Assembly: GCA_963812015.1 (NCBI GenBank)
Contig: CAWETI010000002.1
Location: 64,001-128,000, forward strand
From: an uncultured delta proteobacterium
GTDB taxonomy: Bacteria > Desulfobacterota > Desulfobaccia > Desulfobaccales > 0-14-0-80-60-11
DNA: 64,000 nucleotides
Direction of reading: 5' to 3'
The notes beneath the pieces are model-generated. The model saw only the letters and a list, made by a program, of their open reading frames with translations, searched no databases and was not told where the DNA came from. Positions 40,236 through 58,590 of this stretch are shown here, piece by piece (the stretch's first letter is position 1; every line of letters begins with the position of its first letter). The translations under genes and the position numbers were made by a program.

Positions 40236-40703
40236 GATGCCCTCATGCTTTTTCGTGCTGCCCGCCCTGCCTGGCGGGGGCGGCAACTTCTTATTTTCCA
40301 TACCGTGGCGTTGCAGCTCATCCAAGATCATCCGGCAGCCCCCGTTCACTCTCCCTTATTGAAGATTCGGACCTTTTCCCCCGAACTTAAATCCAAAGCG
40401 CCCCTTTTTTCCGCGCCACCCCGTATCATGAATGATTCAAGACACTTCATCCCATCAATTTTCCGCCCGATCCCGGGCCGGCTCGACCCTCCATGGCCAC
40501 TCGCTGCCGCGCCTGGCCGCTGGAGCACCGGATGGTTAAACTGGATAAAAATGGGGCAGTGATAGTTGGGCTAAAGAACTGAGTACCTGGTTGGGTAAAT
40601 GAGGGATATTTTCAGCAGGGTTTTCATGTCCCCCTTTTCTCAAGGGTGGCGGGAGGGCAGGCGGGTTCAGGGCGGCAGGACCCCCCCGAACCCGGGCGCG
40701 GCA

Positions 40704-41939: not shown

Positions 41940-43077
41940 CGCCCTCGCTTACAATAATAACTATATATTTCACCCTATTTTTGCCGCCGACGCAACTAAT
42001 TCCTGGCCCCCCGGCCAACCCAGGCGCGCCGCCCCCCGCCCCGGCCCTGAACCTCGGATGCCTCAGAGCATGAGCAGCCATTGCCAACCCGGTTTTTTCC
42101 GTCACCCTGAGCGAAGCGAAGGGTCTCAACCTCCCCCATAAACGAGATTCTTCCCTGCCCTCAGCATGACCAGAGAGAACGCCGGGACGTTTTGCCATCC
42201 CCCCCCAAAGCTGATTCTGCTATGCAGTCCATATCTGCAGCTTCTGCTATCCCGATGATAATTGAGGTATTTGGCAAGCTATCGATGCTCGGGCTTGGGC
42301 TCACATCCTATTCTGATGCCGTGGGGAAGGGTAGGAAAATCAGAAGATAGAATTAGGGAATTCCTTATTATAATTTTATCATGATAAGTTACAATTTACC
42401 ATCTCAAGAGCGGAATAAAAAGGTAGGGCGGGAAACAATGGCCAGGAGGCTCAGATCTCTGGGATTCGCCCGGTCTTTGGTCTTGGTCGCTTATCCCCTC
42501 GTGGCCGCGGGGACCAAAATTCAAGATAGCGCCTCGGCCAAATCTGCCCTACCTGGCCAAGTTACCCCGGCTCCCTCAACTCCAACTGCTCCAAATACCC
42601 CCCACACCGCGGCTTTCCGTGGGGGTAGAGCACGTTTCCCCGGCAGGTATTCTGGTGGCCACCAGCGACCAGGAGAAAACCTTTGCTCCTGATATTAAGT
42701 AAGAACGAGCATTTTCCCCAAGGTTAAGGGCAGGGATACCAATGTGAAGGCAAAGGCCTTTACCCCCCGTGGCCCCACCCTGGCGGCTGACCTGCCTCCA
42801 AGAGCGTTATCCGGCCCTGTCGGGATAAAAGTTATCCCAGGCCGGTTCTAACCTGTAGGCCCTTCAAAAGATCCGGAGCACCTCCGGGCTCCTGGAGTCG
42901 AGGCCGACGTGCCCCTGGACCCGGAACGCCTGAAGAGGCCAGGCGCATCGCCGGAAAGGAGGCCAGCCCGAAACTAGAAATCACCTTCATCCCGATTATC
43001 CATTGATTCTGGTCTGACCCCACCTTCACCCCTTGCTAGACGTGCGGGGGAGCCACCCCGCCGGTCAAGGAGGTCTG

Positions 43078-46000
43078 ATGCCTGAGACAAATCCGCCAAG
43101 ACTACTGATCAAGATGCCGCCCGCGGTGAGGGAGGCCCTGGCGGGCCAACCCTTGCGGCTGGCGGGCCATACCTTCCAGCTGCCTGTCTTGTGCCCCAAC
43201 GAAACTCTGGGGGCCCTGGCCACGGCCGCACCTGCCCCCAGGTGGTACGTAGCCGAAGGGCCGCCCGGAGCGGTTACGGTAGCTGAACTCTGGGAGTTGG
43301 CCCACCAGGCCCTGGCTGCCGAAGGCACCCCCCTGGCCGCGGCCGGCGTCTATATCGAGCCGGACCTGCTGCACCCCTGGTTTTACGATAATCCCTGCCG
43401 CACCGCCGGGCTTGGGGCCGCCCCGGTCGACACCTGCGTTTACAACCGCCAGGCCGCCGATTTGCCCCAAGGACCCGGGTTCGCCTGGCATTTGGGCCAG
43501 GATTTTTCCCAGCTCAGGGAGGCCCGGGACCAGGTAGCCGCCGCCGACCGGGCGTCGGTGCGCCTTGGCATCATGGACGTGGGCTTCGACTTTTCCCATC
43601 GAGCTATGCCGGAGGCATCGCAACTGCTGGTTGACCTGCAGCGCAACTTCGTGGACGATGGCCAATCGCCGAAGGACGCCTCCGATCCTTATCCAAGGGG
43701 GCTGTTCAAGAATCCCGGGCACGGCACCGCCACCATCGCCATTCTGGCCGGCGGCCGCTTGATCGGCATGGCCCCGCCCGCGGATACCAACGACTACCTG
43801 GGCGGGGCGCCTTTGGCCAAGGTCATCCCGGTGCGCATCGCCAGTTCGGTGATCCTGCTCTACACCAGCGCCTTTGTCAAAGGTCTGGACTACCTTATCG
43901 CCCCTTACCAAGACCCCGCTGACACCGGCGACCGGGATCAGGGCGCCGACGTGATCTCCATGAGCATGGGGGGGCTGGCCTCCAAGGCCTGGGCCGATGT
44001 GGTGAACCGGGCCTACGAGGCCGGGATTTGCCTGGTGACCGCGGCGGGCAATAACTTTTTCGGGACCCCGCAAACCATCGTCTATCCGGCGCGTTTTAAG
44101 CGCGTCATCGCCGCCTGCGGCATCATGGCCGATGGAAACCCGTATATTCGCGACAAGGTGCCGTCCCTTCGCATGGCCGGCAACTACGGGCCGGACAGCA
44201 AGATGGACACGGCCCTGGCGGCCTATACCCCGAATATGACCTGGGCCGAGATCAACTGCCCGACCATTGTCGATATGGACGGCGCCGGGACCTCTGCGGC
44301 CACCCCTCAGGTGGCGGCCGCCGCGGCCCTCTGGTTGCAAAAATACAAGGCTCAACTCCTGAGCCGGGCCCCTTGGGAGCGGGTCGAGGCCGTGCGCCAG
44401 GCCCTATTCGCCAGCGCTAGGAAGACCGACCCCGATTGCCGGAAGTACTTCGGTCAGGGCGTCCTCCAGGCGGCCGCGGCGCTGGCGGTGCAGCCCGCGG
44501 CGAAACTCACCACGACCCCGGCCGACCAGGTTTCCCTGCCGTTTCTGAGCGTCCTCACCGGGGTGGGGGTGGCCGGGGCCCCCGGCACCGAGATGCTGGA
44601 GGTCGAAGCGCTTCAGCTTCTCCAACGGGATCGGTTGATAGAAAAGACCATCAAAGATCCCGAGCTACCGGAGATCAAGAGGAAGGAGATCAAGGACTTC
44701 ATGGAGGCGTCCATCGCCAGTGAGCTGGCTTCCTCCACCTTGAAGAACTATTTTAAGGAGGTCTATATGAACAATTTCGCCAACGTCTCGTTGCCGCAAC
44801 AACATTCCCAATCACCGCCCCCGATAACCGAAAGAAAGGTCCACACTCCTCGTCCGGTGTGCCGGCGGTTGCGCGGTTTTGCCTTCGATCCGGAGATGTC
44901 CACCCGCCTGGAAACCGCCCGCATCAACTCGGTGGTGTTTGAGGTCCCCTGGGAAATGGGCCTCAAGCTCGGTCCCTCCGGTGAATATGTGGAGGTGATC
45001 GATCATGATCCGGCCAGCGGCTGTTTTTATGCTCCGGTGGATTTAAACAATCAGTTCCTCCTGGCAGCTGACGGGCTCTCACCTTCCGAGGGTGACCCCA
45101 AATTCCATCAACAAATGGTCTATGCCGTGTCCATGCGCACCATCAATAATTTCGAGATCGCCCTGGGCCGCAAGGCCTTGTGGTCCCCAAAGATGCTCGA
45201 CAAGGATGACCACCTATACGTTCAAAAGTTGAGAATTTATCCACACGCCCTACGAGAACGCAATGCCTACTATGACCCGGAGAAGAAGGCCCTGCTGTTC
45301 GGCTACTTCCCCGCCACTGCCGCCGATCCGGGGCAGCAGTATCCCGGCGGCATGGTCTTCACTTGCCTGTCGCACGACATCGTGGCCCACGAAACCACCC
45401 ATGCCCTGCTGGACGGCATGCACCGGAATTTCATCCAGCCAAGCAATGAGGACCAACTGGCTTTTCACGAAGCCTTTGCCGACATTGTGGCCCTGTTCCA
45501 GCACTTCTCCATGCCGGAGGTGTTGCGGCACCAAATCGCCAAAACCAGAGGCGACATGCGGACCCGGAACCTGTTGGGCGAATTGGCCCAGCAGTTCGGC
45601 CAAGCCACCGGCATGCGCGGCGCCTTACGCAGCGCCATCGGCCAGACGGACCCCAAAACCGGCCAGTGGAGTCCGCTAATCCCTGACCCCGCGCTTTATG
45701 TGACGGCAACCGAACCTCACGCTCGTGGAGCCTTGTTGGTAGCCGCGGTATTTGACGCCTTTATGTCGATCTACGAGATCCGGACCGCCGACCTTTTGCG
45801 CCTGGCCACCTCTGGGACGGGCGTCCTGCCCGGCGGCGCCATTCACCCCGACCTGGTGGGGCGCTTAAGTGAAGAGGCTGCCATGGTTTCCCAGCATGTG
45901 CTGAATATATGCATCCGGGCCCTGGATTATTGTCCGCCGGTGGATTTGACCTTCGGGGATTATTTGCGGGCCCTGATCACTGCGGACTACGATTTAGTGC

Positions 46001-46692
46001 CGGACGATCCGTACGGCTACCGAATCGCCTTTGTCGAAGCCTTCCGCCGCTGGGGCATTTACCCCCGGGACTTGAGGAGCCTGTCCGTCGACGCCTTGTT
46101 GTGGCGTCCAGCCTGGGAGGATCTGGAAGGTGACGATAAAGAGTCGGACCCGCTCCACCCCATATTGCTCAATTTGCGCGCCTTTGCCGAAGAATTCCGC
46201 TATCTCGAGTCCAGGAAAGAGATGTTCCGCCGCACCCGGGAATGGCGCAGAAAAGTGCATGGGGACCTGAAGCGTCTCTTCAAAAGCATTTCCAGAGATC
46301 AATGGAAACAACAAAAGCTCATGTCCGCCCTGGGGCTCGATCTGAAAGAGCCTTTTGAGGTGCACGCCCTGCGGGTATCAGACCGACAGGGTCCCGATAC
46401 CGAGCCTCGTCCCCCCAAAATTCTGCTGTCTTTGGTGCAGGAGCGCCAGGTGCCGGGTGATGCCGACGGGGGCGGTCAACCCTTCGTGTACAGCGCCGGC
46501 TGTACGATTATTGCCGACCAGCGGCAGGCCGCAGTCGATTACTACGTGAGCAAGAGCATATTCAGCGAGGGGAGGCTCGCTCGCCAGCGAACCTTCAATG
46601 CTACCTCAAGCCAACCTTTGGCCGCGCTTTACTTCGGCGCCAGCCCACTGACCGGTATGGCCCAGCGTTTTGCCATGCTGCATGCAGACTAG
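43078..46692 (+). CDS. Subtilisin (S8) protease fused to an M4-like zinc metalloprotease domain
   Basis: S8 triad IMDVGFD / HGTAT / GTSAATP with AAGN; C-terminal NAYY, HETTH (HExxH), AFHEAFAD; AGGAGG RBS; no signal peptide. Confidence 0.88.
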   Translation: MPETNPPRLLIKMPPAVREALAGQPLRLAGHTFQLPVLCPNETLGALATAAPAPRWYVAEGPPGAVTVAELWELAHQALAAEGTPLAAAGVYIEPDLLHPWFYDNPCRTAGLGAAPVDTCVYNRQAADLPQGPGFAWHLGQDFSQLREARDQVAAADRASVRLGIMDVGFDFSHRAMPEASQLLVDLQRNFVDDGQSPKDASDPYPRGLFKNPGHGTATIAILAGGRLIGMAPPADTNDYLGGAPLAKVIPVRIASSVILLYTSAFVKGLDYLIAPYQDPADTGDRDQGADVISMSMGGLASKAWADVVNRAYEAGICLVTAAGNNFFGTPQTIVYPARFKRVIAACGIMADGNPYIRDKVPSLRMAGNYGPDSKMDTALAAYTPNMTWAEINCPTIVDMDGAGTSAATPQVAAAAALWLQKYKAQLLSRAPWERVEAVRQALFASARKTDPDCRKYFGQGVLQAAAALAVQPAAKLTTTPADQVSLPFLSVLTGVGVAGAPGTEMLEVEALQLLQRDRLIEKTIKDPELPEIKRKEIKDFMEASIASELASSTLKNYFKEVYMNNFANVSLPQQHSQSPPPITERKVHTPRPVCRRLRGFAFDPEMSTRLETARINSVVFEVPWEMGLKLGPSGEYVEVIDHDPASGCFYAPVDLNNQFLLAADGLSPSEGDPKFHQQMVYAVSMRTINNFEIALGRKALWSPKMLDKDDHLYVQKLRIYPHALRERNAYYDPEKKALLFGYFPATAADPGQQYPGGMVFTCLSHDIVAHETTHALLDGMHRNFIQPSNEDQLAFHEAFADIVALFQHFSMPEVLRHQIAKTRGDMRTRNLLGELAQQFGQATGMRGALRSAIGQTDPKTGQWSPLIPDPALYVTATEPHARGALLVAAVFDAFMSIYEIRTADLLRLATSGTGVLPGGAIHPDLVGRLSEEAAMVSQHVLNICIRALDYCPPVDLTFGDYLRALITADYDLVPDDPYGYRIAFVEAFRRWGIYPRDLRSLSVDALLWRPAWEDLEGDDKESDPLHPILLNLRAFAEEFRYLESRKEMFRRTREWRRKVHGDLKRLFKSISRDQWKQQKLMSALGLDLKEPFEVHALRVSDRQGPDTEPRPPKILLSLVQERQVPGDADGGGQPFVYSAGCTIIADQRQAAVDYYVSKSIFSEGRLARQRTFNATSSQPLAALYFGASPLTGMAQRFAMLHAD

Positions 46693-46706
46693 GGAGGATA
46701 ATTGCG

Positions 46707-48161
46707 ATGCCTGAGACTGTGTCCTATCAAGTTCCCGCCGGGAGCAAGGTTCGTATCCGGATGTATCGCCAGGGGCTGGGCGATTGTTTCCTCCTCACCT
46801 TTTACGACAATAACGGACCCAATCATATCCTCATCGACTGCGGCGTCTTGCTTGGTACTCCGAACGGCAGTCAGAAAATTCTCCAGGTGGCTCAAGACAT
46901 TGCCACGGAAACCAATGGCAAACTTAAGGCCCTAGTGGCGACCCATGAACATTGGGATCATATCTCCGGGTTTTTCGACGCCGCCGAGGTTTTCGATCCC
47001 TTCGATATCGGGGAAATCTGGGTAGCCTGGACAGAGGACCCCAGCAACCCGACAGCCAAGAGCCTAAAGCGCCAGAATAGCCTCAAGCTTCAGGCCATCC
47101 ATCTGGCCCTGGCCCAACTGGCCGAGACCGGCGAGCCCCAGTTCCAGGCCTACGGGCAAGGGGTGGCAGGACTGCTCGCTTTCTTCGGGGGTCCGGCTGC
47201 AGGTGCCACCCTGGCCGCTTTCTCGGATAAAACCTCCCAGGCGATGGCCAAAGTGACGCAACGCCATCCGGTTCCCACCTATTGCAAGCCCGGTGATGTG
47301 ATCCGGCGTGATTGGCTGCCGGGCGTGGGGATCTATGTCATGGGGCCGCCGGAAGACCCGGCTATGCTCCATCTGATGGAAGGCCCGGTGGGCAAAGACA
47401 TGTACGGTCTGACCGGGGCCGACAGCGCCTTTGCCGCAGCCCTGGAAGCGTCGGCACTCGCCGCCATGGGGGAGGAGGCGGATCCAATCAGCGCCGGACT
47501 CATTGATGCGGCCCTGCCCTTCAATGCTTCTTTGCAATGGCACGATAAGCCAGGAAAAAATAGGATTCTGGAGGACCCACAGTTCGGACCACTCTATAAG
47601 TCGTATATGGCTGACGACGCCAGTTGGCGGCGCATCGATCAGGACTGGCTTCTTTCAATGGCCCGGCTGGGGCTCCAGTTGGACAACGCCACCAACAACA
47701 CCAGCCTGGTTCTGGCCTTCGAGTTCAGCGACACTAAGGAAGTCCTGTTGTTCGCCGCCGACGCCCAGATCGGCAATTGGAAGTCCTGGTTTACCATTAA
47801 GGCATTTGATGCCGCCGATCTCATGCGGCGCACCGTATTCTACAAGGTGGGACATCACGGCAGCCACAACGCCACCCTGAAGGAAGGCGGCCTGGAGGCC
47901 ATGACCACGCCGGGGTTGGTGGCCGCCATCCCGGTGGACGAGAATTTCGCCAACAACGTCAAGCACTGGCCGATGCCGGCGAAGCCGCTTTATGCCCGCT
48001 TGCAGGATTTGACCCGGGGCCGCATCTTGCGCGCCGATAAGACTTGGCCCAGCGACGCCGATCAACCCCCGCCGGGTCTATCGACCGAGGATTGGCGGGA
48101 CTTTACCGGAATGGTCCAACTGGCCCCGGATGGCTTGTTCATCGATTTCTATATGAAATAG
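46707..48161 (+). CDS. MBL-fold metallohydrolase (ComEC-like) with large insertions
   Basis: GLGDCFLL, LIDCG, THEHWDHISG, NNTSLVL, ADAQ, KVGHHGSHN. Confidence 0.88.
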   Translation: MPETVSYQVPAGSKVRIRMYRQGLGDCFLLTFYDNNGPNHILIDCGVLLGTPNGSQKILQVAQDIATETNGKLKALVATHEHWDHISGFFDAAEVFDPFDIGEIWVAWTEDPSNPTAKSLKRQNSLKLQAIHLALAQLAETGEPQFQAYGQGVAGLLAFFGGPAAGATLAAFSDKTSQAMAKVTQRHPVPTYCKPGDVIRRDWLPGVGIYVMGPPEDPAMLHLMEGPVGKDMYGLTGADSAFAAALEASALAAMGEEADPISAGLIDAALPFNASLQWHDKPGKNRILEDPQFGPLYKSYMADDASWRRIDQDWLLSMARLGLQLDNATNNTSLVLAFEFSDTKEVLLFAADAQIGNWKSWFTIKAFDAADLMRRTVFYKVGHHGSHNATLKEGGLEAMTTPGLVAAIPVDENFANNVKHWPMPAKPLYARLQDLTRGRILRADKTWPSDADQPPPGLSTEDWRDFTGMVQLAPDGLFIDFYMK

Positions 48162-48303
48162 AGGATGTTGGCGCCTAATGGACCTGTGGTCCAGGCCCAC
48201 TCATGGGGTGCTTGCCGTCCTTAAAGAGAGTACAGGTCAATACCAGAAGAACACCAGATAGTTTTCTCCAATCGCGGCTATTAACACATAGGAGGATCGC
48301 TTT

Positions 48304-50013
48304 ATGCCCAACGCTGACGACATCCTTTGGCTTAAGAAGCAGTTTCACCGGCAGATTAAAGCTGCGGTGAAAGACACCCCATTTAGCCTCGACATGCTCA
48401 CCGCAATCGCTTGCCAGGAGTCGGGTGAAATCTGGCCAATCCTTCGTAAAAAACCACTAAGCCTCGGGCAATTGCTGGAGTTGTGCGTTGGCGACACCAT
48501 TGACACAAGTGGTGGGCGCCAAGCGTTTCCGAAAACCAAGAGCGATTTGTTGGCCAAGCCGAAGGGAGAGCAGATGTTTGCTATCGCTCGGCAAGCCCTG
48601 GTGGACATGGCCCATTACATCAAGGGCTACCAGGCGGCAGCGGCAAACCCGGAAAAATTTTGCCATGGTTTCGGCATCTTCCAATACGACCTGCAGTTCT
48701 TCCTGGAGGACCCGGACTATTTCCTCCAAAAGCGCTACGCCGACTTTGATGCGTCCCTTGGGAAATGCATTGGAGAACTTCATAATGCCATGAAGCGGAT
48801 CCACTGGGATAACAAGACCACGCTCACGGATTATGAGATGGCGTGCGTGGCCATTGCCTACAATACTGGCGGCTTCAAGCCGGGCAGGGGACTGCAGCAA
48901 GGCTACAGACCCCCTGGGGGCAAGTACTACGGGGAAGAAATCTTTGCTTTGCTGCGTTTGTCAAAGACGGTGGCGCTGCCGGGCGCTGGCCCGGCGGCGC
49001 TATCCGCTCCCCAGCCTGGAAACGCGGCGGTACCGCCACCCACGCCGGTGGAGGCTACCGGGCCGTTTTACGAGGTGGATGTCCGCCAGGCACCCTTGCG
49101 CTTGCGCCGCGAGCCGCAGATTGACGCGAATGATCCGAACGCCAACGTGATGGCGCTGCTGCCTGACGGCCAGCCCGTGCGGGCCGTCAAGAACCGAGAG
49201 GTCAATGGCTTCCTGGAGGTGGAGACGAGCTTGTGGGGCGCACACCACCGCGGCTTTGCCTCCGCTCGGTATCTTAAGCCTGCTCCGGGCGGGGCCAAGG
49301 TGCCGATAGTAACACCGGCGCCGGCGCCGCCAAGCCGCGGCATCGTCGCGGTCTACATGCCAAGTCAGCCGGGGGTAGTGACCAGGCGTACCGACCCCCC
49401 CGACGCACATTCACTCAACGAACCGAACCAGCCGGGCCGCAGGGGCGCCACCCCTGACGATCTCCGCGCCGAGCTGGCGGCGATTATCGATTGGCTGGCG
49501 GTAGACGACGCCACCCACAGGCGCTACCAACCTGGTAAGAATACTTATTGCAACATCTATGCGCATGACTATTGCTATCTGGCCGGCGCTTATCTGCCTA
49601 GGGTATGGTGGACGCCGGGGGCCATCGAGAAGCTGGCCCAAGGGAAAGACGTTCAACCGTTTTTAGAAAACACCATAGACGAGCAGCGCGCCAATGACCT
49701 CTTCCGCTGGCTGCGCGACTTTGGCCCGCGCTTCGGTTGGCAGGGGACTGGCACCGTGAGCAAGCTGCAACTGGAGGTCAACCAGGGGGCGATCGGCCTC
49801 ATCGTCGCTCGACGCAAGGAGGACGGGAGGCCAGGCCATATCGTCGCGGTGGTGCCTGAGACCGATAATCACCGGGCGCGGCGCGACGCCGCCGGGGAGG
49901 TGATCGCACCGCTGCAAAGCCAGGCTGGATCGACTAATTTCCGTTACGGGACCAGACTCAACTGGTGGAGGGATGACCGATTTGCCGACAGCGCTTTTTG
50001 GCTGCACTCCTGA
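48304..50013 (+). CDS. Multidomain peptidoglycan hydrolase: lysozyme/SLT-like + SH3b + CHAP/NlpC-like
   Basis: AIACQESG, GFGIFQ, AYNTG; LRLRREP..GFASARYL; TYCNIY..GHIVAV..QAG; no signal peptide. Confidence 0.78.
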   Translation: MPNADDILWLKKQFHRQIKAAVKDTPFSLDMLTAIACQESGEIWPILRKKPLSLGQLLELCVGDTIDTSGGRQAFPKTKSDLLAKPKGEQMFAIARQALVDMAHYIKGYQAAAANPEKFCHGFGIFQYDLQFFLEDPDYFLQKRYADFDASLGKCIGELHNAMKRIHWDNKTTLTDYEMACVAIAYNTGGFKPGRGLQQGYRPPGGKYYGEEIFALLRLSKTVALPGAGPAALSAPQPGNAAVPPPTPVEATGPFYEVDVRQAPLRLRREPQIDANDPNANVMALLPDGQPVRAVKNREVNGFLEVETSLWGAHHRGFASARYLKPAPGGAKVPIVTPAPAPPSRGIVAVYMPSQPGVVTRRTDPPDAHSLNEPNQPGRRGATPDDLRAELAAIIDWLAVDDATHRRYQPGKNTYCNIYAHDYCYLAGAYLPRVWWTPGAIEKLAQGKDVQPFLENTIDEQRANDLFRWLRDFGPRFGWQGTGTVSKLQLEVNQGAIGLIVARRKEDGRPGHIVAVVPETDNHRARRDAAGEVIAPLQSQAGSTNFRYGTRLNWWRDDRFADSAFWLHS

Positions 50014-50205
50014 TTTGGTCCGGAGGGTAACAAACCCCCCACGCGGAGTCTGGGATCCTGATCAGGTTTATCTTAGGAAAGACTTAAAGAAGCGGTTCAG
50101 AGGATAAATTCTAAAATGAGTTAGGGGCCGGTTAATCCAGGTTAATTTCCCGGATTCTTTTGAGCCAGGCTGTCGGCAAATTGCAGTCACAGGCAAGGAG
50201 GAACA

Positions 50206-51054
50206 ATGAAGACCACTGCTGCCCTGTTAGGAGCCTTTCTTGGTTGCTGGTTCATTTTTTGCCCGGTCCCGGGGTGGGCTCAAGCCCCGGAGGTTCCGAA
50301 GGCTACCGCACCAAGCCAACCAATTACTGAGCCCGCTACGAGTACCCCTGCGCCGAGTCCGCCAGCCAAACCCGGTGCATCGGCCCAGCCGGTGGCAGTC
50401 CCTCCCGGGGGGCCAGTCCCGCCGTCGCCAGCCTCTCCCGGGGGGGCAGCCCAGCCGGCGTCAGTTACTTCCCTGGAACCTTCGAAAGCCTTAAATGCAG
50501 CTGCTCTGGCCAAGGGGCTGGACTGGAACCTGATCTTGGTTCTGCTCCTAACTTTCGTTACGGGTGGGATGGGGGGCATCGTTTATGAGTTGCTCATCCT
50601 CCAGGGCAATATCGAATTGCCCCATAAACCTGACCAGGATGAGATAACTGAAAAGTTTCCCTACGCCATCCCCAAATTTCTATTTGATCTGGGGATTTTT
50701 GCCCGGGTTATTATCGGGGCCGCCGCGGCATTGGCCGCGCTTCTGGTCTTGACGCCAACTACAGCCACAACCTTGCTGGCAACTTCCTTAGTCGCGGGTT
50801 CCGCAGGCACCTCGGTATTCCGCTCCATCCAGGACCGGCTGTTGGCGGCTCTGGCTCAAAAGGACGCGGCCAATAAGGGGACCCAGCTGACCAAAATGAA
50901 CACCATTAACACCCAGGCCCTTGAAAAACTAAGCAGGCTCAAGACTGCTGCTGTCCCCCCCGCTACCGGAGGCAAAGGGCTCACCGGCGTCGGCCTAGAT
51001 GACCTGGATGAGATCGAAAAATTGCTGAGTGAGGCCAAGGGGCTGGGCGCCTAG
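50206..51054 (+). CDS. Membrane protein: signal peptide, Pro-rich linker, 3 TM segments, C-terminal helix
   Basis: Signal ending ..GWAQ; TMs GGMGGIV / IIGAAAA / SLVAGSAG. Confidence 0.75.
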   Translation: MKTTAALLGAFLGCWFIFCPVPGWAQAPEVPKATAPSQPITEPATSTPAPSPPAKPGASAQPVAVPPGGPVPPSPASPGGAAQPASVTSLEPSKALNAAALAKGLDWNLILVLLLTFVTGGMGGIVYELLILQGNIELPHKPDQDEITEKFPYAIPKFLFDLGIFARVIIGAAAALAALLVLTPTTATTLLATSLVAGSAGTSVFRSIQDRLLAALAQKDAANKGTQLTKMNTINTQALEKLSRLKTAAVPPATGGKGLTGVGLDDLDEIEKLLSEAKGLGA

Positions 51055-51248
51055 CGGAACCTTGAATAAGCGCCGGCTACCGGAACTCTAACCGAAATGA
51101 CCGGCGTTTAACGCCTGCCCTCAAGCTATGGGAGGGATTTTAAGGCGGAATCTCGACAAGGGTTGCAAGATTAAGGACAGCCTCGGCTAAGGCTGTCAAA
51201 AATAAACCGGCCGCTAAGTTGGCGTAAAAACCGGCAAAGGAGCAGGGA

Positions 51249-52850
51249 ATGACACCGGCGACAAGTAAAATTGACAAAGTCATAGTTACTAATTTTTCGG
51301 CGCTTAATGCAAAGTACGGTAACCAGGGGGGGCAAAAGATTCAGACTGCGGTACAAGATTTAATTGCCGCAGACCAAAGCCGCGGCCTGGTTACCGGCTT
51401 TTATCGCCTGGATGACCTGGCTACTATGCAGCAGTTTAAGGTGGCGCCCGTTACCATCCCAACCAATCCGAAGCAAAACAAAGAGGCGGTCGATGCCGTT
51501 TACCGGGCCCTCGCTCCGGATTATATTCTCATGTTAGGCAGCATAGACATCATTCCGCATCAGGACCTGAAAAACCCTATCTTTTCGTCAGGGAATGATG
51601 CGGACGAATTTGCCTTCGGTGACCTCCCCTATGCCTGTGAATCCCCTTACATTCAAAATCCTGAAGATTTTTTTGGGCCGACCCGGGTTGTCGGCCGGGT
51701 GCCGGATATTACCGGAGCCAATGATCCCCAGTACCTGATAGATTTATTGAAAATCGCCGCGACCTATACGGAGAACGATGCTGAGCAGTATCGCCCGTAT
51801 TTCGGGATCTCGGCGGAAATCTGGGAACAATCAACCAGGTCAAGTACTTCTAACATCTTCGGGAATTCCCAAGGCCTCAAGACGGTTCCACCGCAAGGTC
51901 CAAATTGGCCTCCCGCCCTGTTGATTCAGCTGGCTCACTTCATCAACTGTCATGGCGCTCCGGCCGACTCCCATTTTTATGGACAGCCGGCCACCGGTGC
52001 CCAAAAATATCCCATCGCCCTCGATGCCACCAACCTGGAACAAAATATTTCTGAAGGGGCGGTGGTTGCCGCCGAATGTTGTTATGGCGCCCAGCTCTTC
52101 GATCCGGCCCTGAACGGCGGACAAAGCGGGATATGCAACACCTACCTTGGCAACAAGGCCTACGGGTTTTTTGGCAGCACCACCATTGCTTATGGACCTG
52201 CTGATGCCAATGACCAGGCTGATCTGATCTGCCAATACTTCCTGCAAGGCGTCTTGCAGGGGGCCTCGTTGGGAAGAGCGGCCCTTGCGGCTCGGCAAAA
52301 ATTCATCCATACTGCCAGCATGTATGACCCCTCCAATGTTAAGACTATCGCGCAATTCAATCTCTATGCCGACCCATCTATAACCCCGATCAGACCGCCG
52401 CTGGCGCCGACAAAGGCCTTGGCCCGGTTCGCCCCCATGAACCTGCGCCTGGAGAGGGTGGAGCGCCGTCGGGACTTTTTCAGCCGCGGCCTTGCCTTAG
52501 CCCAGAGCCAGCCAAGCCTTAGCAAAGATGTAAGTAAGAAAGAAGACGTGGTATTGGCTGCTTTGCATAAAGTTGCAGGTGACTACGGTCTTCGCACGAA
52601 AGAAATATTGACGTTCAACGTGAAAGAGCCGCCTATATCGAAATCTATGCCCCTTGGACTTGTGGCAAGGGAAACACTTCCCAGTCGCATACACATAATC
52701 TTCGGAACCACCGAGGACATGGCTAGGGAAAATACCATGAAGATGGTATCCGGGGAAACAAAGCTTCCTAATGTAGTGGGAATCGTTGCCCTGATTATCA
52801 AGGAAATAAACGGGACTATAGCTTCCGTCAAAAAAATCTTCAGCAGATAG
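51249..52850 (+). CDS. Peptidase C25 (gingipain/caspase-fold) cysteine protease
   Basis: ILMLGS..IP, DLPY, VGRVP, catalytic dyad candidates NCHG and AECCYG, FNLYADP; no signal peptide. Confidence 0.8.
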   Translation: MTPATSKIDKVIVTNFSALNAKYGNQGGQKIQTAVQDLIAADQSRGLVTGFYRLDDLATMQQFKVAPVTIPTNPKQNKEAVDAVYRALAPDYILMLGSIDIIPHQDLKNPIFSSGNDADEFAFGDLPYACESPYIQNPEDFFGPTRVVGRVPDITGANDPQYLIDLLKIAATYTENDAEQYRPYFGISAEIWEQSTRSSTSNIFGNSQGLKTVPPQGPNWPPALLIQLAHFINCHGAPADSHFYGQPATGAQKYPIALDATNLEQNISEGAVVAAECCYGAQLFDPALNGGQSGICNTYLGNKAYGFFGSTTIAYGPADANDQADLICQYFLQGVLQGASLGRAALAARQKFIHTASMYDPSNVKTIAQFNLYADPSITPIRPPLAPTKALARFAPMNLRLERVERRRDFFSRGLALAQSQPSLSKDVSKKEDVVLAALHKVAGDYGLRTKEILTFNVKEPPISKSMPLGLVARETLPSRIHIIFGTTEDMARENTMKMVSGETKLPNVVGIVALIIKEINGTIASVKKIFSR

Positions 52851-52858
52851 TAGGCGAT

Positions 52859-53101
52859 ATGGCCGAGTTTATCGGTAAAGTGATCAAGAAACCGTTTGGT
52901 ATTGGTTCCAAGAGCGAGCACGAAGCAGTCTTTCTGGAAACCGAAAATAACCAATATGTCCTGCGCCGCCAGGGGGGTAACCCTTTTTATGATGAGGCCA
53001 TGCAAGAAATCGTTGGCAAGACCATTCGTTGCACCGGTGTGGTCGTCGATTATGCTCTCTTGATTTCAGATTGGGCGGTACTTGAGGAGGGGGAAAAATA
53101 A
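52859..53101 (+). CDS. Small hypothetical beta-rich protein
   Basis: 80-aa ORF 8 nt after the C25 gene; GSKSEHEAV..LRRQGGNPF. Confidence 0.7.
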   Translation: MAEFIGKVIKKPFGIGSKSEHEAVFLETENNQYVLRRQGGNPFYDEAMQEIVGKTIRCTGVVVDYALLISDWAVLEEGEK

Positions 53102-53299
53102 CGGACAACAGGTTGAGCTTATATCGGAATCCCGCCTGGCACTAAGGCCTTTAAGGTCGTGCTGCGGAAATCATCCTTTGCCGGGTCCGATGGCTGGCCG
53201 CCAGGACTGGCCCAGGGAGGTAAAGGTAGGAATCACGGCGACAGATAAGATTGATGCATTCAAAATTATTGAAATTTAGACAAAGGAGGATAGCTGATT

Positions 53300-54466
53300 A
53301 TGAACTTATTTTATATTGCCATGGCAGTTTGGTTGTCGATGATTCTATCTGGATGTGCCACGCCGGTCGTTACATCAATAACACCAATAAGCTTTTATGA
53401 AAAGCCGGTTGAAAATAAAACCCCCCCCTATATGATTGTCGATGGTGTGCCTTATTTCTTACCAAAATCAGTGATAAATGTTGATATTACCTGGAATAAA
53501 GATCAGTATAATTGGACTGTTACCGTAGCGTCCGTGATTCAACCTGACGAAAAGTCCAAATACTTACTCAAAAGAATCTCCAACGCCTGGTTTGATGATG
53601 ATATTACTTTTGCGGTTGATCAAAACGGCCTTCTGCAAACTATGAATATCTCAACGGCGGACAAGACGGTTTCGTCAATTACCGATCTCGCTACGGCTGT
53701 TGGCAATATTTTTGCCTTTGGCGCTGGCTTAATGCCAATGGGTCCGGTTGCGATGATGAAAGGGAAAGCGGAGGAGCCCCCGTTCAAGGATATACTTTGT
53801 TCCTTTCATGGTGAATATGATCCCTTCAAACCGATTGAAAAAACGATACCAACTTTAACTAGTCCCGTGTTCCAATTATATGAAAAGCCCGTTCAAAAGT
53901 GGGAACAGGTCAGCGCGACTTTCGATATAAAGATCGAGCCTCTTGGCGATCTTCCTTTAACCGCCATTCCGGACCAGAATGAAATTGAAAAAATCCGTAA
54001 GATGGTCCCCTCTGCTGATGAAAGTGAATATGAAGAGATGCGTAAGGTTGCCAAGGATTCAAGCCAAGCTATTCATGGGATTGTCGTAAGGACTCCGGTT
54101 CCATGTAAAATAAGCATCACTAAGCACGAGCATGTTATTACATACACTGATAAAAAAGACCTGGATAGAAGTGAAACACACACTTGTACTCTAATGCTTC
54201 CGGATGTAAGGCGGGATTATATTTTGCCGATGAACCGCCGATATCTCGTTACGGATCAGACGAAAATCGCCTTAAAGGATGGCATGATCCAAAGTATACA
54301 GCAAGTCAGACCAAGCATGGTAGCCGGGGTTGTAGGTATTCCAAAAACAATTCTATGTGCGTTGGTTCCAATACCATTGCAAATCAGAAATACCCAATCT
54401 CAAAGCCTGCAAGCCATAGATACTTCTATTAAGACTAAGGCTGACATCAAGTTACAATCACAATAG
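53300..54466 (+). CDS. Putative lipoprotein
   Basis: Lipobox LSGC at residue 19; GGAGG RBS; AT-rich. Confidence 0.75.
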   Translation: MNLFYIAMAVWLSMILSGCATPVVTSITPISFYEKPVENKTPPYMIVDGVPYFLPKSVINVDITWNKDQYNWTVTVASVIQPDEKSKYLLKRISNAWFDDDITFAVDQNGLLQTMNISTADKTVSSITDLATAVGNIFAFGAGLMPMGPVAMMKGKAEEPPFKDILCSFHGEYDPFKPIEKTIPTLTSPVFQLYEKPVQKWEQVSATFDIKIEPLGDLPLTAIPDQNEIEKIRKMVPSADESEYEEMRKVAKDSSQAIHGIVVRTPVPCKISITKHEHVITYTDKKDLDRSETHTCTLMLPDVRRDYILPMNRRYLVTDQTKIALKDGMIQSIQQVRPSMVAGVVGIPKTILCALVPIPLQIRNTQSQSLQAIDTSIKTKADIKLQSQ

Positions 54467-55178
54467 CCATCTAACAGTCGAAGCAGTCTCTGGCTAGATG
54501 GTCGCCCGGTTGGAAGGCGCTGACGCCACGATGCTGCAAGAAAACTTGGTAAATTATAGCCTGGTCTTGGATGCAACAATAGACTGGTGTGGGACTTATA
54601 GTTCCAGATGGAGGACACCCCCGCTTGGTGATCATTGAAGTTGCCATTATCGATGTCTCCAGCGGAGTGAATTCGATTGACATCTAACCCTCTATTGTGA
54701 AGAAGTGATATCTTTGGGGCGTGTTCTCCTATGGCCAGTGTCGGGTCGATAGTTCTGCTATTTATGCGCTCATCAAGTGGGTCTGGAAGTGTTTCACTAT
54801 CCAGATCATACCCGCAACTTTTCCGGGTTTGGGGATAATTGCTGGGTTTAGCAAATAACTTGGAATTTCTCTATCTAGAAATCTGAACTGGTCAAAGGCC
54901 TCCTTTTCCTTTGGCTTCCCCTTATCGGGCGATGCTGTCATGGGTTCCTTAACCTCCGCAGCAGTGAAGCGTTCGGGTATTGAGGGTTAAGTATGTCCAA
55001 AACTCAGGGAAAAGGTGCTTTTCCCTGAAAATTTGTGCTAACATGCCGGTGACGAGGGGATTCGGCTTCAAGAACAGAAACTTTGGGTGATTTTCCCCCG
55101 GCACCGAGGTCCCCAAAAGCATGCTTGGACTAGGATGGCCAAGCTTGCCGGATAATTGCGGCATTATAGGGAATAAAC

Positions 55179-56645
55179 TTGAATCCTGCCCCAAACCGTG
55201 ATGCCACTGAAGAGCCCCTGTTGAACATCGTTTTGGCGACCTCACCGATTGATATCGCCTGGAATTCCGGATCATTCCCGCCCTTGGGACTCTTGTATCT
55301 AGCTGCAAATATAAAGAATCTGCCCGGTGTCCGGGTAAAGATCGTGGACGCGTTTTGCGAAGGGCTGAACGTGGACCAGACCGCGGAAAGGATTCTGGCC
55401 CTCTCCCCCGATGTGGTGGGAGTTTCGGTGATGAGCACGAAACTCGAAAACCTTCCCAGGCTACTGGGGAGGATCAAAGCAGCCCGACACGATACCCTGA
55501 CTTTGGCCGGTGGCCTTCACGCCACCCTCTTTGACCGTCTCCTCCTCAAAGAGATACCCGAACTCGATCTAGTCCTGAGGGGAGAAGCGGAAGAAAGTTT
55601 CTTGGAGCTGGGCAAACGCCTCCTGGCGGGGAAGGAAACTGCCGGTCTACCGGGACTGTCTTATCGGGCCCAGGGAAAAGTAATCCGGGGGGAACCCCAG
55701 CAAATTGAGGATCTGGACTCCCTGCCTTTCCCAGACCGGAGCCTCCTGGATTACCCCGGTTATGGGAAGCAATGGTATGGCTTCGAGCTTCCCCTCTTGC
55801 CCCGTTTCACCACCGCGTTCTCCTCCAGAGGCTGCCTGTTTAACTGCACCTTCTGCGCCGGCACCAAACTGAGTGGCAATCGGCTCAGAATCAGAAGTGC
55901 CGAGAACGTCTTGCAAGAACTGCTAGTGCTGTCCCAGGAAGGATACGAGTTTGTCATCTTCTTTGACGATAATTTCACCGGCAACGTGGATCGCCTCGAC
56001 AAGCTCTGTCACTTGATCATAGAACATATCCCCAACATGCGCTTGGCCTGCGCCGGGACCTTGCACCATGTACCGGACGCCACGTTAGATCTTATGCACC
56101 GGGCTGGCTTTGACCTGGTTTTTTTGGGAGTAGAGAGTGGCAGCGATGAACAGCTCAGACGCTACCGGAAACCCACCACGCGCAAACAGCTGGCAACCGA
56201 CATTATCCGGACCAAAAAAGCCCATATCGCCACCATCGCCAGCTTCATCACCGGCGGCCTGGGAGAGACGGATCAAGATCACGAGGCTACCAGGACACTC
56301 GTCTGGGAAGTAATGCCGATTATTGCGGAAATCAACCCGCTGATGGTCCATCCCGGTAGTTGCCTCTGGGATGAAATCCATGGCTCCCAAGAGCCTAAAA
56401 CCTTGAAGGAATCCGAGAGCCTCTTGGTTTCGAATTTTCCGGGGCAAATGGATAAGGCGACTTTAAAGTTCCGAGAGCGCGATTTCCGGAGGACCTTCCT
56501 CAAAAGCTGGCTGCATTGGCGGCGAATTTTTGACTTCCTGGATCTACTCAGACATAATCGCTTAATAGGAGGGATCATCAAGGATGTTTTCCGAACTCCT
56601 CAGACCCTCTTCATGTACTTGCTAAGGCAAAACTACCGTGAGTAA
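55179..56645 (+). CDS. Cobalamin-dependent radical SAM protein
   Basis: PPLGLLYLAA, GGLHAT, RGEAE, RGCLFNCTFC, DDNF, GVESG. Confidence 0.92.
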   Translation: MNPAPNRDATEEPLLNIVLATSPIDIAWNSGSFPPLGLLYLAANIKNLPGVRVKIVDAFCEGLNVDQTAERILALSPDVVGVSVMSTKLENLPRLLGRIKAARHDTLTLAGGLHATLFDRLLLKEIPELDLVLRGEAEESFLELGKRLLAGKETAGLPGLSYRAQGKVIRGEPQQIEDLDSLPFPDRSLLDYPGYGKQWYGFELPLLPRFTTAFSSRGCLFNCTFCAGTKLSGNRLRIRSAENVLQELLVLSQEGYEFVIFFDDNFTGNVDRLDKLCHLIIEHIPNMRLACAGTLHHVPDATLDLMHRAGFDLVFLGVESGSDEQLRRYRKPTTRKQLATDIIRTKKAHIATIASFITGGLGETDQDHEATRTLVWEVMPIIAEINPLMVHPGSCLWDEIHGSQEPKTLKESESLLVSNFPGQMDKATLKFRERDFRRTFLKSWLHWRRIFDFLDLLRHNRLIGGIIKDVFRTPQTLFMYLLRQNYRE

Positions 56646-56841
56646 TATCCTTTAGATTTCTCGTCTGACTTCACCTGAGGCGAAGGTAAATCAGAGGCGC
56701 CCGACTGCTAGATAGTCTCAGCGGTGATCTCCTGGCCAGCCTCGGGGTAGCCCCGGATTATCCGACCATCGCCGCGGTTTGGAGATTTTTCAGGAAGCCG
56801 ATCAAGATGGCAAGCCTGTAACTGACCCGGAGAACCATATT

Positions 56842-58263
56842 ATGCGCATTCTCTTACTGGCCATGCCCGATACGGTTGATTTTATTGATGCCACCGCCCG
56901 CATCCCCAACCTGGGCCTGGTTTCCCTGGCCGGCAATCTGCCGGACCATGAAGTTAAGGTAATGGATTTGGTGCTCTATAAGCCAAACATCCGCAAGGCG
57001 GTGGAAGCGAGCCTGGCCACATTTCGGCCCCAGTTGGTGGGATTGAGCGCCATGACCTTTCAGTATGATACCCTACTGAGGGTGGCCAGAGTGGTGCGCC
57101 GGTTCGACCCCGATATCAAGCTGGTGGCCGGCGGTTATCATCCGAGTCTGATGGCTCGGGAACTAGCCGAGGAAGATCTGCTGCTTCTCGACTTCATCGT
57201 GCGGGGGGAAGGGGAGGCCACGTTGGGCGAACTGGTTGCCGAGCTGGAGCGGGCCCAACCTGATTTTTCCGGGGTTGCCGGATTAAGTTACCGCCAGGGG
57301 GCACACTGGGAGCATAATGCCGATCGCCCCCTCCTGGACTTGGACCAGGTTCTCCTCCCCCGGCGCGAGTCCCGTTTGGACGAGGGCTTTTTCTTTTTGG
57401 ACATGCCCATGGAGGTGGCCGAAACCTCGAGGGGCTGCCCGTTCAATTGCAAGTTTTGCTCGATCAACCGAATCTACGGCAACACCTATCGCCGTTTTCC
57501 CCTGGCCCGGATCATTGCGGACCTCAAGGCGATTCGACGCCGGGGCGCCAAATCGGTGTTTTTCGTCGATGATAACATCACTTATGATATCGACCATTTC
57601 CGGCAGGTGTGTCAGGCCATTGTCCAGCATGGGTTAAATGACCTATGTTATCTGACCCAGGTGACGGCGGCGGGTATCGCCAAAAATCCGGCCTTGGTGG
57701 CTGACATGGACCGGGCCAATTTCCGCCTCATATTTGTGGGATTTGAATCCATGGAGCCGGCCGCCTTGCAGAAAATGCGCAAGCCCACCAGTCCGGCCAT
57801 TAACCAGCAAGCCGCGGCCCTACTCAGGCAACATCGGATGGCGATAATTGCCGGGGGAATTATAGGCTATCCGGACGATACCCAAGAATCAGTGAAACGA
57901 CAATTTCGGCAGATTTGGGGACTGAAACCCGATGTTCTCTATATGCAAATCTTGACGCCCTATCCCCAGACGGCGCTCCGTCAGGAATTGCTGGAAGCCG
58001 GCCTTATCGTCAATTTGGATGATTACCGGTCCTATAACGGCTTCGTCAGCAATATCCGCACCAAGCACTTGAGTCGCAAAGAGCTGAATAAATTAAAAGG
58101 TAACCTGGCTTTCTGGGGGGCGGTCAATCCGGGTTTTTTGGCCCGTAATTACTTTCTCAGAAACCACTTCCTTTATTATCTCAAAACTATAGTCAATCAT
58201 GTCGCCCTTTATTTCTACTATCGTCTGATTTCCAAAGAAGATCCACGCCAATTGAATATCTAG
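56842..58263 (+). CDS. Cobalamin-dependent radical SAM protein
   Basis: PNLGL, GGYHPS, RGEGE, RGCPFNCKFC, DDNI, GFES. Confidence 0.92.
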   Translation: MRILLLAMPDTVDFIDATARIPNLGLVSLAGNLPDHEVKVMDLVLYKPNIRKAVEASLATFRPQLVGLSAMTFQYDTLLRVARVVRRFDPDIKLVAGGYHPSLMARELAEEDLLLLDFIVRGEGEATLGELVAELERAQPDFSGVAGLSYRQGAHWEHNADRPLLDLDQVLLPRRESRLDEGFFFLDMPMEVAETSRGCPFNCKFCSINRIYGNTYRRFPLARIIADLKAIRRRGAKSVFFVDDNITYDIDHFRQVCQAIVQHGLNDLCYLTQVTAAGIAKNPALVADMDRANFRLIFVGFESMEPAALQKMRKPTSPAINQQAAALLRQHRMAIIAGGIIGYPDDTQESVKRQFRQIWGLKPDVLYMQILTPYPQTALRQELLEAGLIVNLDDYRSYNGFVSNIRTKHLSRKELNKLKGNLAFWGAVNPGFLARNYFLRNHFLYYLKTIVNHVALYFYYRLISKEDPRQLNI

Positions 58264-58279
58264 TTATTTTAGGTGGGAA

Positions 58280-58590
58280 ATGATTTCTGTCCGGTTAAGC
58301 GGTCTAGAGCGATACCTGCCCGGGATCATTAATATTAAATATATTGGGGTGGTCCAAAATCTCCTGTAACGTATACCCTCGGAATAGGCTAAGTTGTTGT
58401 ATTCGAAATAAATTCTGGAGACTAATATCGAAACCGAAAGGAACTTGCTGTAACAAAGCAAAAGAAAAGCAATGCGAGATAGATAGATTTGAGTCATTAC
58501 GGCATTCTCAGAATTGCCGAGGAATGCTTTGATCTTGAGGTTCTGCTTAATCCAACGAAAGAAGATTTAGATTTGTCAACGTTTTTTGAA
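58280..58590 (-). pseudogene. IS4-family transposase C-terminal remnant
   Basis: Hand translation FKKR*QI*IFFRWIKQNLKIKAFLGNSENAVMTQI: two stops in the Y..RW.IE motif, then a frameshift to SLQNLFRIQQLSLF. Confidence 0.8.

Follow-up and report, generated by a model that had tools for sequence, protein, structure and literature searches.

The g1-g2 protease-MBL pair

The window analyzed here (the whole stretch of 64,000 nucleotides, from contig CAWETI010000002.1 of an uncultured delta proteobacterium, assembly GCA_963812015.1) contains a block of seven plus-strand open reading frames (ORFs), given the working names g1 to g7, the first two of which form a conserved unit. According to the ORF list, Pfam, and structural models, g1 (43033/43078-46692; all positions are window coordinates) joins an N-terminal region and an S8 subtilase domain to a thermolysin-like zinc protease module, and g2 (46707-48161, plus strand) encodes, by model and motifs, a 484-residue ComEC-type hydrolase of the metallo-β-lactamase (MBL) fold, a putative gated pro-nuclease. 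On balance, and with considerable reserve, we favor the reading that g1-g2 is a variant of the protease-activated MBL pro-nuclease modules with a metalloprotease as partner, gated by cutting and acting in anti-phage defense or cell death. An earlier sequence-only reading had combined all seven genes into one conflict system; their co-directionality was confirmed, but the neighborhood conservation on which a seven-gene unit would depend was absent. In the best 80 loci from a scan of 185,579 genomes, one for each species (the scope of all g1-family counts out of 80), a g2 homologue lies directly downstream of the M4-like module in 74, distributed over more than 10 phylum-level groups, whereas g3, g4, g5, g6, and g7 stand next to the g1 family in none of the 80 genome loci and in none of 7 loci from relatives, and the g5 family keeps only g6. 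The conserved unit therefore comprises two genes. The six loci without an MBL gene all have less than ~170 bp of contig left past the protease gene.

The g1 ORF measures 1219 aa when counted from the TTG codon at 43033, and homologues align from the Met encoded at 43078. The S8 domain (plus strand, aa 176-476 of the 1219-aa ORF) belongs to the S8 family by Pfam (5e-23; 82.3 bits versus a cutoff of 21.8), and its residues D182, H230, N340, and S421 are kept in 8 of 8 S8-bearing homologues. The zinc protease module of ~620 aa, delimited by conservation and modeling (plus strand, aa ~600-1219, nt ~44830-46689), carries HExxH at aa 786-790 within an extended motif HExxH...E...D (H786, E787, H790, E813, D817) that is kept in 12/12 sequences. 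Together with the invariant MBL motifs of g2 (38/38), these results uphold the S8, HExxH, and MBL calls of the sequence-only reading and its statement that the catalytic motifs are intact. The model of the module, built from 33 sequences, reached a predicted local distance difference test (pLDDT) value of 75.6 and a predicted TM score (pTM) of 0.82. Foldseek returned vibriolysin as the best match (3nqx, 4.8e-4), followed by LasB, ProA, and thermolysin; VIA-align gave Z 21.2 for M36 fungalysins over module residues ~54-432 (299 residues aligned), Z 18.1 for thermolysin (261 to 264 of 316 residues aligned), and Z ~18 for thermolysin and aureolysin taken together (250 to 264 aligned). As modeled, the constant protease module thus has the M4/M36 thermolysin fold; module residues 433-630, a C-terminal stretch of ~200, are without an assigned fold. 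Compared with thermolysin (M4) and fungalysin (M36), the module shares the fold (Z 18-21 over residues ~54-432) and the HExxH plus E-x3-D signature, but the identity is only 9 to 18%, Pfam finds neither an M4 domain nor an FTP/PepSY propeptide, a signal peptide is not visible by eye, and the ~200 C-terminal residues are extra. None of the Pfam, NCBIfam, or PADLOC models matches the module, and few homologues carry PF01447; it is therefore filed as M4-like and not as a member of the M4 family. In RefSeq, the module appears as "hypothetical protein" or, when joined to S8, as "S8 family serine peptidase."

The model of g2, from 38 sequences, was of higher quality (pLDDT 85.3, pTM 0.88), and its best structural match is the MBL nuclease domain of ComEC (9ic4; Foldseek 3.2e-9; Z 21.3, root mean square deviation 3.1, 23% identity, 254 of 266 residues aligned over model residues 12-484). 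Fold and metal-binding motifs are shared with ComEC; H80, H82, D84, H85, D352, H383, and H384 (HxHxDH plus D plus HH) are the residues invariant in all 38 sequences. Unlike the ComEC domain, g2 is soluble, stands alone outside the competence channel, and has ~220 added residues, a figure that follows from the 254 residues of the span 12-484 that align to 9ic4. The additions fall in two gappy stretches of lower pLDDT, at about aa 113-190 and 222-300. Inside these variable stretches, the sole invariant residues are F159 and P271-F272, each present in 38 of 38 sequences, which makes F159 and F272 candidate cut sites. A PDB search with the MBL profile matched the N-terminal MBL motif alone, so that the insertions could not be mapped by sequence. 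In Pfam, the MBL match of g2 is borderline, and PHROGs on the block proteins gave just a generic S8 match and a weak MBL match.

The g1 family is abundant and phylogenetically broad. At least 574 stretches were found in the 185,579 species genomes, in Acidobacteriota, Chloroflexota, Bacteroidota, Planctomycetota, Verrucomicrobiota, Gemmatimonadota, Armatimonadota, Actinomycetota, and several proteobacterial classes; more than 4425 relatives of g1 were counted among 8000 scored, and the MBL family of g2 comprises 1893 clusters or representatives at 50% identity (E ≤ 1e-30). Within the genus of the window, g1 is patchy, being present in 2 of 17 other genomes. The module is also plasmid-borne, on 64 of 72,556 plasmid records, 35 of which are conjugative and 3 from Mesorhizobium. 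On Methylorubrum pCMU01, an S8-peptidase and an MBL gene lie between SIR2-family genes, in the company of DUF2235 and AAA ATPase/exonuclease genes and an IS5 element, and on Agrobacterium pAtH25_79a, a patatin-M4-MBL arrangement abuts a DUF1837 and DEAD-box helicase pair, which we take to be the Hachiman gene pair. TerY and STK_OB genes adjoin the module at one chromosomal locus (L024; loci, genomes, and database proteins are denoted by L-, G-, and P-numbers). The IMG/VR viral contigs contained six distant partial M4-like matches (26 to 34% identity) and no close relative.

In approximately 30 loci, no further co-directional neighbor lies less than 250 bp from the pair, and the remaining neighbors are heterogeneous. 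Most protease genes of the family, with 640 to 750 aa, correspond only to the C-terminal ~620-aa module of g1. An S8 domain is fused to the M4-like module in 15 of the 80 loci, 19 have a gene for a patatin-like phospholipase immediately upstream (all 13 tested carry Pfam Patatin), and M4-M4 tandems of ~1175 aa abound among database proteins. In two of four aligned tandems (P0097, P0091, P0069, and P0115), the N-terminal copy reads HQxxH in place of HExxH, and this copy is probably inactive. The M4-like module is thus the constant partner, and S8, patatin, and the second M4 copy are optional extras, with S8 elsewhere missing or its place taken by the second M4 copy; the fused S8 domain may serve as a second effector or a second cutting site. 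One of the 120 matches listed, P0113 (2069 aa; source name "AAA ATPase-like protein"), has precomputed AAA_16 and PF24883 assignments. The block does not correspond to ietAS, which combines S8 with an AAA ATPase antitoxin: it contains no ATPase gene, and its PADLOC subtilase match reaches 7e-6.

Predicted complex and relation to protease-activated nucleases

For prediction of the protease-MBL complex, module residues 20-516 and the whole MBL were submitted with custom unpaired alignments and three controls. The complex scored 0.72 (runs 0.74, 0.72, and 0.70), the best control 0.01, and across the runs the partners showed pLDDT values of at least 78 and shared at least 80% of contacts. We know of no solved M4-MBL complex, and memorization of a known structure by the predictor is therefore an unlikely source of this score. 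The predicted interface connects M4 module residues 56-81, 98-100, 145-171, 185, and 187 with MBL residues 237-317. On the MBL side, it is made up of insertion 2, with P271-F272, Y300, and a WRRID motif; on the protease side, it involves the conserved N-terminal β domain, including a strand ~30 residues before HExxH, the equivalent of which is presumably the strand along which thermolysin binds its substrate. Conservation of this surface was compared with MBL presence. Identity to g1 in 32 MBL-linked modules averaged 0.64 for interface positions and 0.66 for the core; in the MBL-less S8-M4 proteins of three genomes (G025, G030, and G032), it was 0.39 to 0.44 at the 41 interface positions and 0.62 to 0.65 in the core, the largest interface drops among the 35 sequences, although the three proteins come from a single genus and therefore count as one observation. 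Distances of M4 and MBL sequences correlate across 20 loci (Mantel r = 0.67, reached in 0 of 2000 permutations), with shared phylogeny as a confounder. In these predictions, then, interface conservation tracks the presence of the MBL, and the two proteins would bind one another via insertion 2.

The closest precedent is provided by two recent studies. The text of Tuck et al. (Science 2026, PMC12799240) describes a class of gated pro-nucleases, ComEC-like MBLs in which two insertions block the active site and cutting at one conserved residue per insertion releases the DNase; the protease partner is trypsin-like and fused to HamA or Avs1b, or is a caspase in canu. The text of Evans et al. (bioRxiv 2025, PMC12642450) distinguishes three clades of MBLs, whose associated proteases are trypsin-like, caspase-like, and S8 subtilisin-like, respectively, and reports double cleavage after Ile133 and Ile232 of a Zn-dependent double-stranded DNase. 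The sequence-only reading had recognized no named system in the block; as far as these texts describe them, the protease-activated MBL pro-nuclease modules are a fit for g1-g2 (PMC12799240, PMC12642450). The pair shares with the trypsin-partnered MBL pro-nucleases (HamM of HamMAB, Avs1a, and the MBLs of Avs2/Avs4, Lamassu, and DRT) the ComEC-like fold and motifs with two insertions, the adjacent, co-evolving protease gene, the one conserved residue per insertion, and the occurrence in defense islands; the defense profiles nearest to g2 are of this type as well. The differences from this trypsin-partnered type, to the extent that the texts specify it, are several. Its partner is trypsin-like, whereas g1 contains a thermolysin-fold zinc enzyme and is neither trypsin-like nor a caspase; its MBL gene lies upstream of the protease gene, whereas g2 lies downstream; and it has a STAND, Hachiman, SMC, or reverse transcriptase sensor, whereas the g1-g2 family has no fused sensor and in its minimal form consists of two genes. 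Moreover, g2 is ~100 aa longer and has Phe in place of Ile as the insertion residue, its sequence similarity to the trypsin-partnered type is confined to ~100 N-terminal residues, and g1-g2 is known from sequence and models.

Canu (CanABC), as presented in PMC12799240, resembles the pair in having its MBL downstream of a stand-alone, non-trypsin protease and in accessory genes that vary by locus, but its protease is a caspase with an Ig-like domain accompanied by CanB, whereas g1 is a metallo- and serine protease; the clan-CD-like g5 of the present block lies apart from the MBL gene and is paired with an 80-aa protein of its own. The "Clade 3" S8-associated MBLs of PMC12642450 probably represent the same MBL family as g2: NCBI labels g1 homologues "S8 family serine peptidase" beside "MBL fold metallo-hydrolase." The text on that clade names S8 only, whereas in our loci S8 occurs in 15 of 80 and the M4-like module is constant. 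The words metalloprotease, thermolysin, and patatin are absent from the texts of PMC12799240 (including one supplement) and PMC12642450, and a literature search returned no description of an M4/thermolysin-like partner, although figures and bioRxiv supplements, which lay outside that search, may name further families.

Gene linkage, folds, intact catalytic motifs, and the predicted interface lead us to infer the following course of cleavage, nuclease activation, triggering, and defense. The cytoplasmic thermolysin-fold protease of g1 would hold the MBL through insertion 2 until a trigger, probably phage infection, sets it off; it would then cut the MBL insertions at or beside the invariant F159 and F272. 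Thermolysin-type enzymes favor bulky hydrophobic residues at P1'. Cutting would unmask the DNase, and the cell would be killed or arrested. By analogy, the logic would be that of the trypsin- and caspase-partnered MBL pro-nucleases for which it has been demonstrated experimentally. The conflict or cell-death role proposed in the sequence-only reading thus survives as the best reading for g1-g2, not for the seven genes as a unit.

Several observations weigh against this reading. No sensor domain was identified in the pair, and the listed contacts do not include the zinc ligands. The calibration of the complex score, in which 116 of 157 solved complexes and 2 of 215 mismatched pairs reached the same mark, applies only roughly because custom unpaired alignments were used, and the limits of the insertions derive from gappy, low-pLDDT stretches instead of a residue-by-residue structural alignment. 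Hidden Markov models of defense MBLs match only ~70 to 100 N-terminal residues of g2 and stay far below curated cutoffs: PADLOC models of MBL partners match the g2 N terminus weakly (LmuA-type MBL of Lamassu, 2.5e-15; RTasMBL of DRT, 3.7e-9; Avs1a, 1.2e-6), and NCBIfam gave 7.8e-9 and 34.7 bits versus a cutoff of 420 for Avs1a (NF041809) and 30.9 bits versus 220 for 6A-MBL (NF058524). The defense context in chromosomal metagenome-assembled genomes is modest. In a scan of 94 of 276 neighbor proteins, from 14 of 39 eligible loci, 11 of the 94 matched PADLOC at 1e-10 and TerY/STK_OB was the sole clear known system, figures that have no background rate. Finally, three genomes of one genus, 90 to 99% complete (G025, G030, and G032), have S8-M4 and no g2-type MBL anywhere, and an operon found on two near-identical contigs (L138/L139) pairs the M4-like module with other effectors and no MBL; the coupling of M4 and MBL is thus not obligate.

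A rival explanation, which we consider unlikely, is that M4 and MBL form a stable complex with a non-gating role, be it in nucleic acid or protein turnover or in a stress response, or with the MBL regulating or inhibiting the protease. Such a complex would agree with a predicted interface that is docking-like, with the MBL WRRID motif placed against M4 β strands and no loop in the catalytic center, with the many chromosomal loci amid housekeeping genes, and with the occurrence of the M4-like module without an MBL. It accounts poorly for the patchy, plasmid-borne distribution, the swapping of patatin and S8 partners among loci, the defense genes adjoining the pair on both plasmids inspected, and the isolated invariant Phe in each variable insertion, and the gating precedent for the same MBL type, in the experiments described in the texts of PMC12799240 and PMC12642450, also argues against it.

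The preferred reading of a gated, intracellular pair further has to be set against export, which would make the gene products degradative enzymes or inter-bacterial toxins. Classical M4, S8, and C25 proteases are secreted, a Tle1-like phospholipase or DUF2235 gene lies near two loci, and the C terminus of g3 is Tox-PL-like. However, the sequence-only reading had reported no signal peptides on the proteases and the peptidoglycan hydrolase, and by eye none is visible on g1, g2, g3, g5, or g6; the N termini of g4 and g7 are signal-peptide-like and lipobox-like, respectively. Neither an FTP/PepSY nor a C25 propeptide was found, the MBL partner is of an intracellular nuclease type, and among the loci examined the pair has no recurrent neighbor that encodes a secretion system or immunity protein. 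Export is for these reasons regarded as highly unlikely.

Proteolysis-gated effectors were shown to be a major logic of bacterial immunity only in 2025-2026, with trypsin-like and caspase proteases on known sensors. If the preferred reading of gating by cutting is true, the abundant, broadly distributed, and plasmid-borne g1-g2 family would bring a cytoplasmic zinc metalloprotease into play as a third protease chemistry, and its minimal two-gene form without a recognizable sensor would raise the question of how it is triggered. No Pfam or NCBIfam model exists for the protease half, which databases label "hypothetical" or "S8 peptidase," and defense finders would therefore see an orphan MBL at most. 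Directly testable hypotheses on docking and cut sites arise from the interface prediction and from F159 and F272.

Additional arrangements of the protease module were observed. A dynamin-like GTPase gene lies upstream of S8-M4 in two of the three MBL-less genomes (G025 and G032); in genus g9, in genomes devoid of any g2-type MBL, S8-M4 genes 45% identical to g1 (L013 12545-19074 and L014 1458-7509) lie downstream of a gene for a 611-aa dynamin-family GTPase. At L017 9741-12799 (G035), a distant M4-only gene (641 aa, 27 to 32% identical) is followed by a trypsin-family gene (Pfam 1e-58), with no MBL.

The g5-g6 pair and composite loci

The block contains a second, independently mobile conserved two-gene module, g5-g6. 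On the basis of Pfam assignments to its family and Atlas, g5 (51249-52850, plus strand, 533 aa) probably encodes a cytoplasmic C25-family (clan CD-like) cysteine peptidase; g6 (52859-53101, plus strand, 80 aa), which is without a known family, is designated its partner by synteny. The C25 assignment made in the sequence-only reading is favored by the family, although the match of g5 itself to Pfam C25 remains below the cutoff (0.0098; 15.6 versus 23 bits): the identical database entry and most of the 120 relatives listed carry precomputed PF01364, a 42% identical homologue (L104) passes Pfam C25 (35.4 versus 23), the Atlas score is 0.98, and a His/Cys dyad is seen by eye. Pfam indicated no C25 propeptide, and no PDB sequence match was obtained. 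Among 8000 scored, 2899 relatives of g5 were counted, with one cluster named "C25 family cysteine peptidase" at its source; some ORFs of 610 to 930 aa in the g5 cluster may be g5-g6 fusions. In the phylum, g5 was found in 3 of 300 other genomes. In the best 80 of at least 345 metagenome stretches (L122-L201; the scope of all g5-family counts out of 80), a g6 homologue directly follows g5 in 70 overall and in all 64 loci with at least 300 bp of room. The same order occurs in G071 and G278, where g5-g6 stands alone, in G071 among housekeeping genes. With at least 345 metagenome loci, the pair of a C25-like protease and an 80-aa protein constitutes a second uncharacterized conserved module. In 6 to 7 of the 80 loci, the g5-type pair has an S8 gene upstream (all 3 tested match Pfam S8); a GDSL-like gene lies downstream in 9 loci and upstream in a tenth (L182). 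A literature search on C25 peptidases and caspase-like defense likewise returned no M4/thermolysin-like partner.

The M4-like module occurs beside the C25 family in 3 of the 80 loci, 2 of them independent (L123 and L138/L139). At L123, g5 is 79% and M4 63% identical to the window proteins, and an M4-only gene starts ~70 bp after g6. The near-identical contigs L138 (2677-12216) and L139 (552-10622), with 46% identity for g5 and 45% for M4, present an operon in the order EEP nuclease, S8, C25-like protease, 143-aa g6-like protein, Amidase_2-caspase (C14) fusion, and M4-like module, with gaps of 3 to 15 nt except for ORFs whose called start overlaps the preceding gene.

These composite loci speak for the proposal that all seven genes form one multi-protease cascade in which S8, M4, and C25 activate a nuclease, a wall hydrolase, and membrane proteins, with lysis as the outcome. 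The genes are co-directional, L123 and L138/L139 join the C25/small-protein pair with M4, and in the same-genus genome G003 (C33; L011/L018), a two-domain NlpC/P60-SH3-GH19 wall hydrolase, different from g3, lies directly upstream of S8M4-MBL. Chance co-location within 6 kb, estimated from rough frequencies without a computed control, would be expected in ~0.001 per 80 loci, versus 3 seen. Nevertheless, g3-g7 were absent from all 80 M4 loci, M4 is present in just 3 of 80 C25 loci, G071 and G278 carry g5-g6 alone, g3 and the G003 hydrolase have only an SH3-like stretch in common, and variable islands often co-locate genes without functional coupling. The intergenic gaps are 14 nt for g1-g2 and 8 nt for g5-g6, and the remaining four span 142 to 198 nt. 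The GC content decreases from 0.66 at 43-44 kb to 0.43 at 53.5-54.5 kb, which bears out the AT enrichment of the distal part noted in the sequence-only reading. Both the wide gaps and the GC drop suggest that the block genes were acquired separately, a further argument against the cascade, to which we assign a quite low probability. Because the functional set recurs, but rarely, the idea is kept as a minority reading, in the form of a looser multi-protease association with a rarely recurring set of S8, M4, C25/small protein, wall hydrolase, and nuclease.

A wider version of the preferred gating hypothesis may be put forward tentatively, as possible but less likely than not. The thermolysin-fold module would be the hub of a very large, unrecognized group of stand-alone, sensor-less protease-effector immune cassettes, in which the protease itself would sense infection and license a ComEC-type pro-nuclease at two invariant Phe residues or, elsewhere, patatin lipases, S8 or a second M4, EEP nucleases, or amidase-caspase lysins; composite loci such as the present one, wired to the C25/small-protein pair, would then amount to a multi-protease death cascade.

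Beyond the MBL of G003, two convergent ORFs were observed, one of 1044 aa without a Pfam family and one of 1116 aa with zinc-ribbon, adenylate/guanylate cyclase, AAA_16, and TPR domains. The G003 neighbors were also tried as homologues of g3-g5; BLASTP related g3 to them through an SH3-like stretch only (E 0.006) and returned no match for g4 or g5.

Remaining genes, island, and flanks

The other three genes of the block are variable passengers. Pfam found no family in g3, g6, or g7. g3 (48304-50013, plus strand, 569 aa, signal-less) is probably a cell-wall hydrolase, an assignment drawn from Atlas leads: a lysozyme-like N terminus, an SH3-like middle part, and a papain-like, Tox-PL-like C terminus (TM 0.90 by row). 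The two-domain murein hydrolase of the sequence-only reading accordingly has a counterpart in these leads and none in Pfam, PHROGs, or PDB sequence searches, and g3 occurs beside neither the M4 family (0/80) nor the C25 family (0/80). By its translation, g4 (50206-51054, plus strand, 282 aa) is a membrane protein with a signal-peptide-like N terminus, a Pro-rich linker, and a hydrophobic segment, and it matches DUF4257 below the cutoff (2.7e-4); in 1 of the 80 loci (L122), an 81% identical g4 fragment immediately precedes the g5-g6 pair. g7 (53300-54466, plus strand, 388 aa) is, again by its translation, a lipoprotein-like ORF with a lipobox-like N terminus in the AT-richest stretch (GC 0.43 to 0.45). 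No g7 relative was found beside either pair in the 80 M4 and 80 C25 loci; a 394-aa ORF after g6 at L105, considered as a candidate, showed no similarity and is a ferredoxin-type protein. A promoter and terminator scan was uninformative (11 versus 7.3 expected and 25 versus 16.3 expected).

The block resides in a variable island of ~17.9 kb (41940-59828), defined by same-genus comparison and comprising orf103, g1-g7, two B12-binding radical SAM genes, and a 182-aa ORF, which confirms the accessory region proposed in the sequence-only reading. icd lies directly upstream, and a SIMPL/DUF541 gene (59829-60545) lies on the other side. In the same-genus genomes G001 (L118) and G007 (L121), icd adjoins the homologue of this SIMPL gene, at L121 with a gap of ~270 bp, and the ~17.9 kb are therefore extra DNA here; four further same-genus genomes have other gene content at the same site. 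The region is thus a mosaic accessory island in a variable hot spot and not a seven-gene machine. Of the two boundaries that the sequence-only reading had named, icd was retained and the IS4 remnant was not: Pfam found no transposase family among four ORFs at 54949-55305 and 58872-60542, with shorter fragments not searched. A tRNA-Ala (CGC) gene at 60956-61031 (plus strand), which lies ~1.1 kb beyond the island's right edge, may be a landmark of integration.

The two tandem B12-binding radical SAM genes inside the island (55179-58263, plus strand, 488 and 494 aa), whose same-genus homologues are ~27% identical, have NCBIfam matches that all lie far below the cutoff. Their sub-threshold matches to methyltransferases of ribosomally synthesized and post-translationally modified peptides (RiPPs), the weak PatA/PatG-like character of the S8 domain (8.8e-6), and the small size of the g6 ORF would suit a RiPP maturation cluster formed with the block. 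Such a cluster is extremely improbable: none of the 80 M4-family loci has an adjacent radical SAM gene and one of the 80 C25-family loci does, with a weak match; g6 is conserved in length and by eye looks like a folded protein and not a precursor peptide; and the RiPP-type matches are all far below their cutoffs.

On the opposite flank, 3 kb upstream and just past icd as seen from the island, lies a gene for a KAP-family P-loop NTPase of 748 aa (38103-40349, minus strand). It matches the PADLOC PifA model end to end (6.6e-113), which places a second defense-type gene near the g1-g2 pair.

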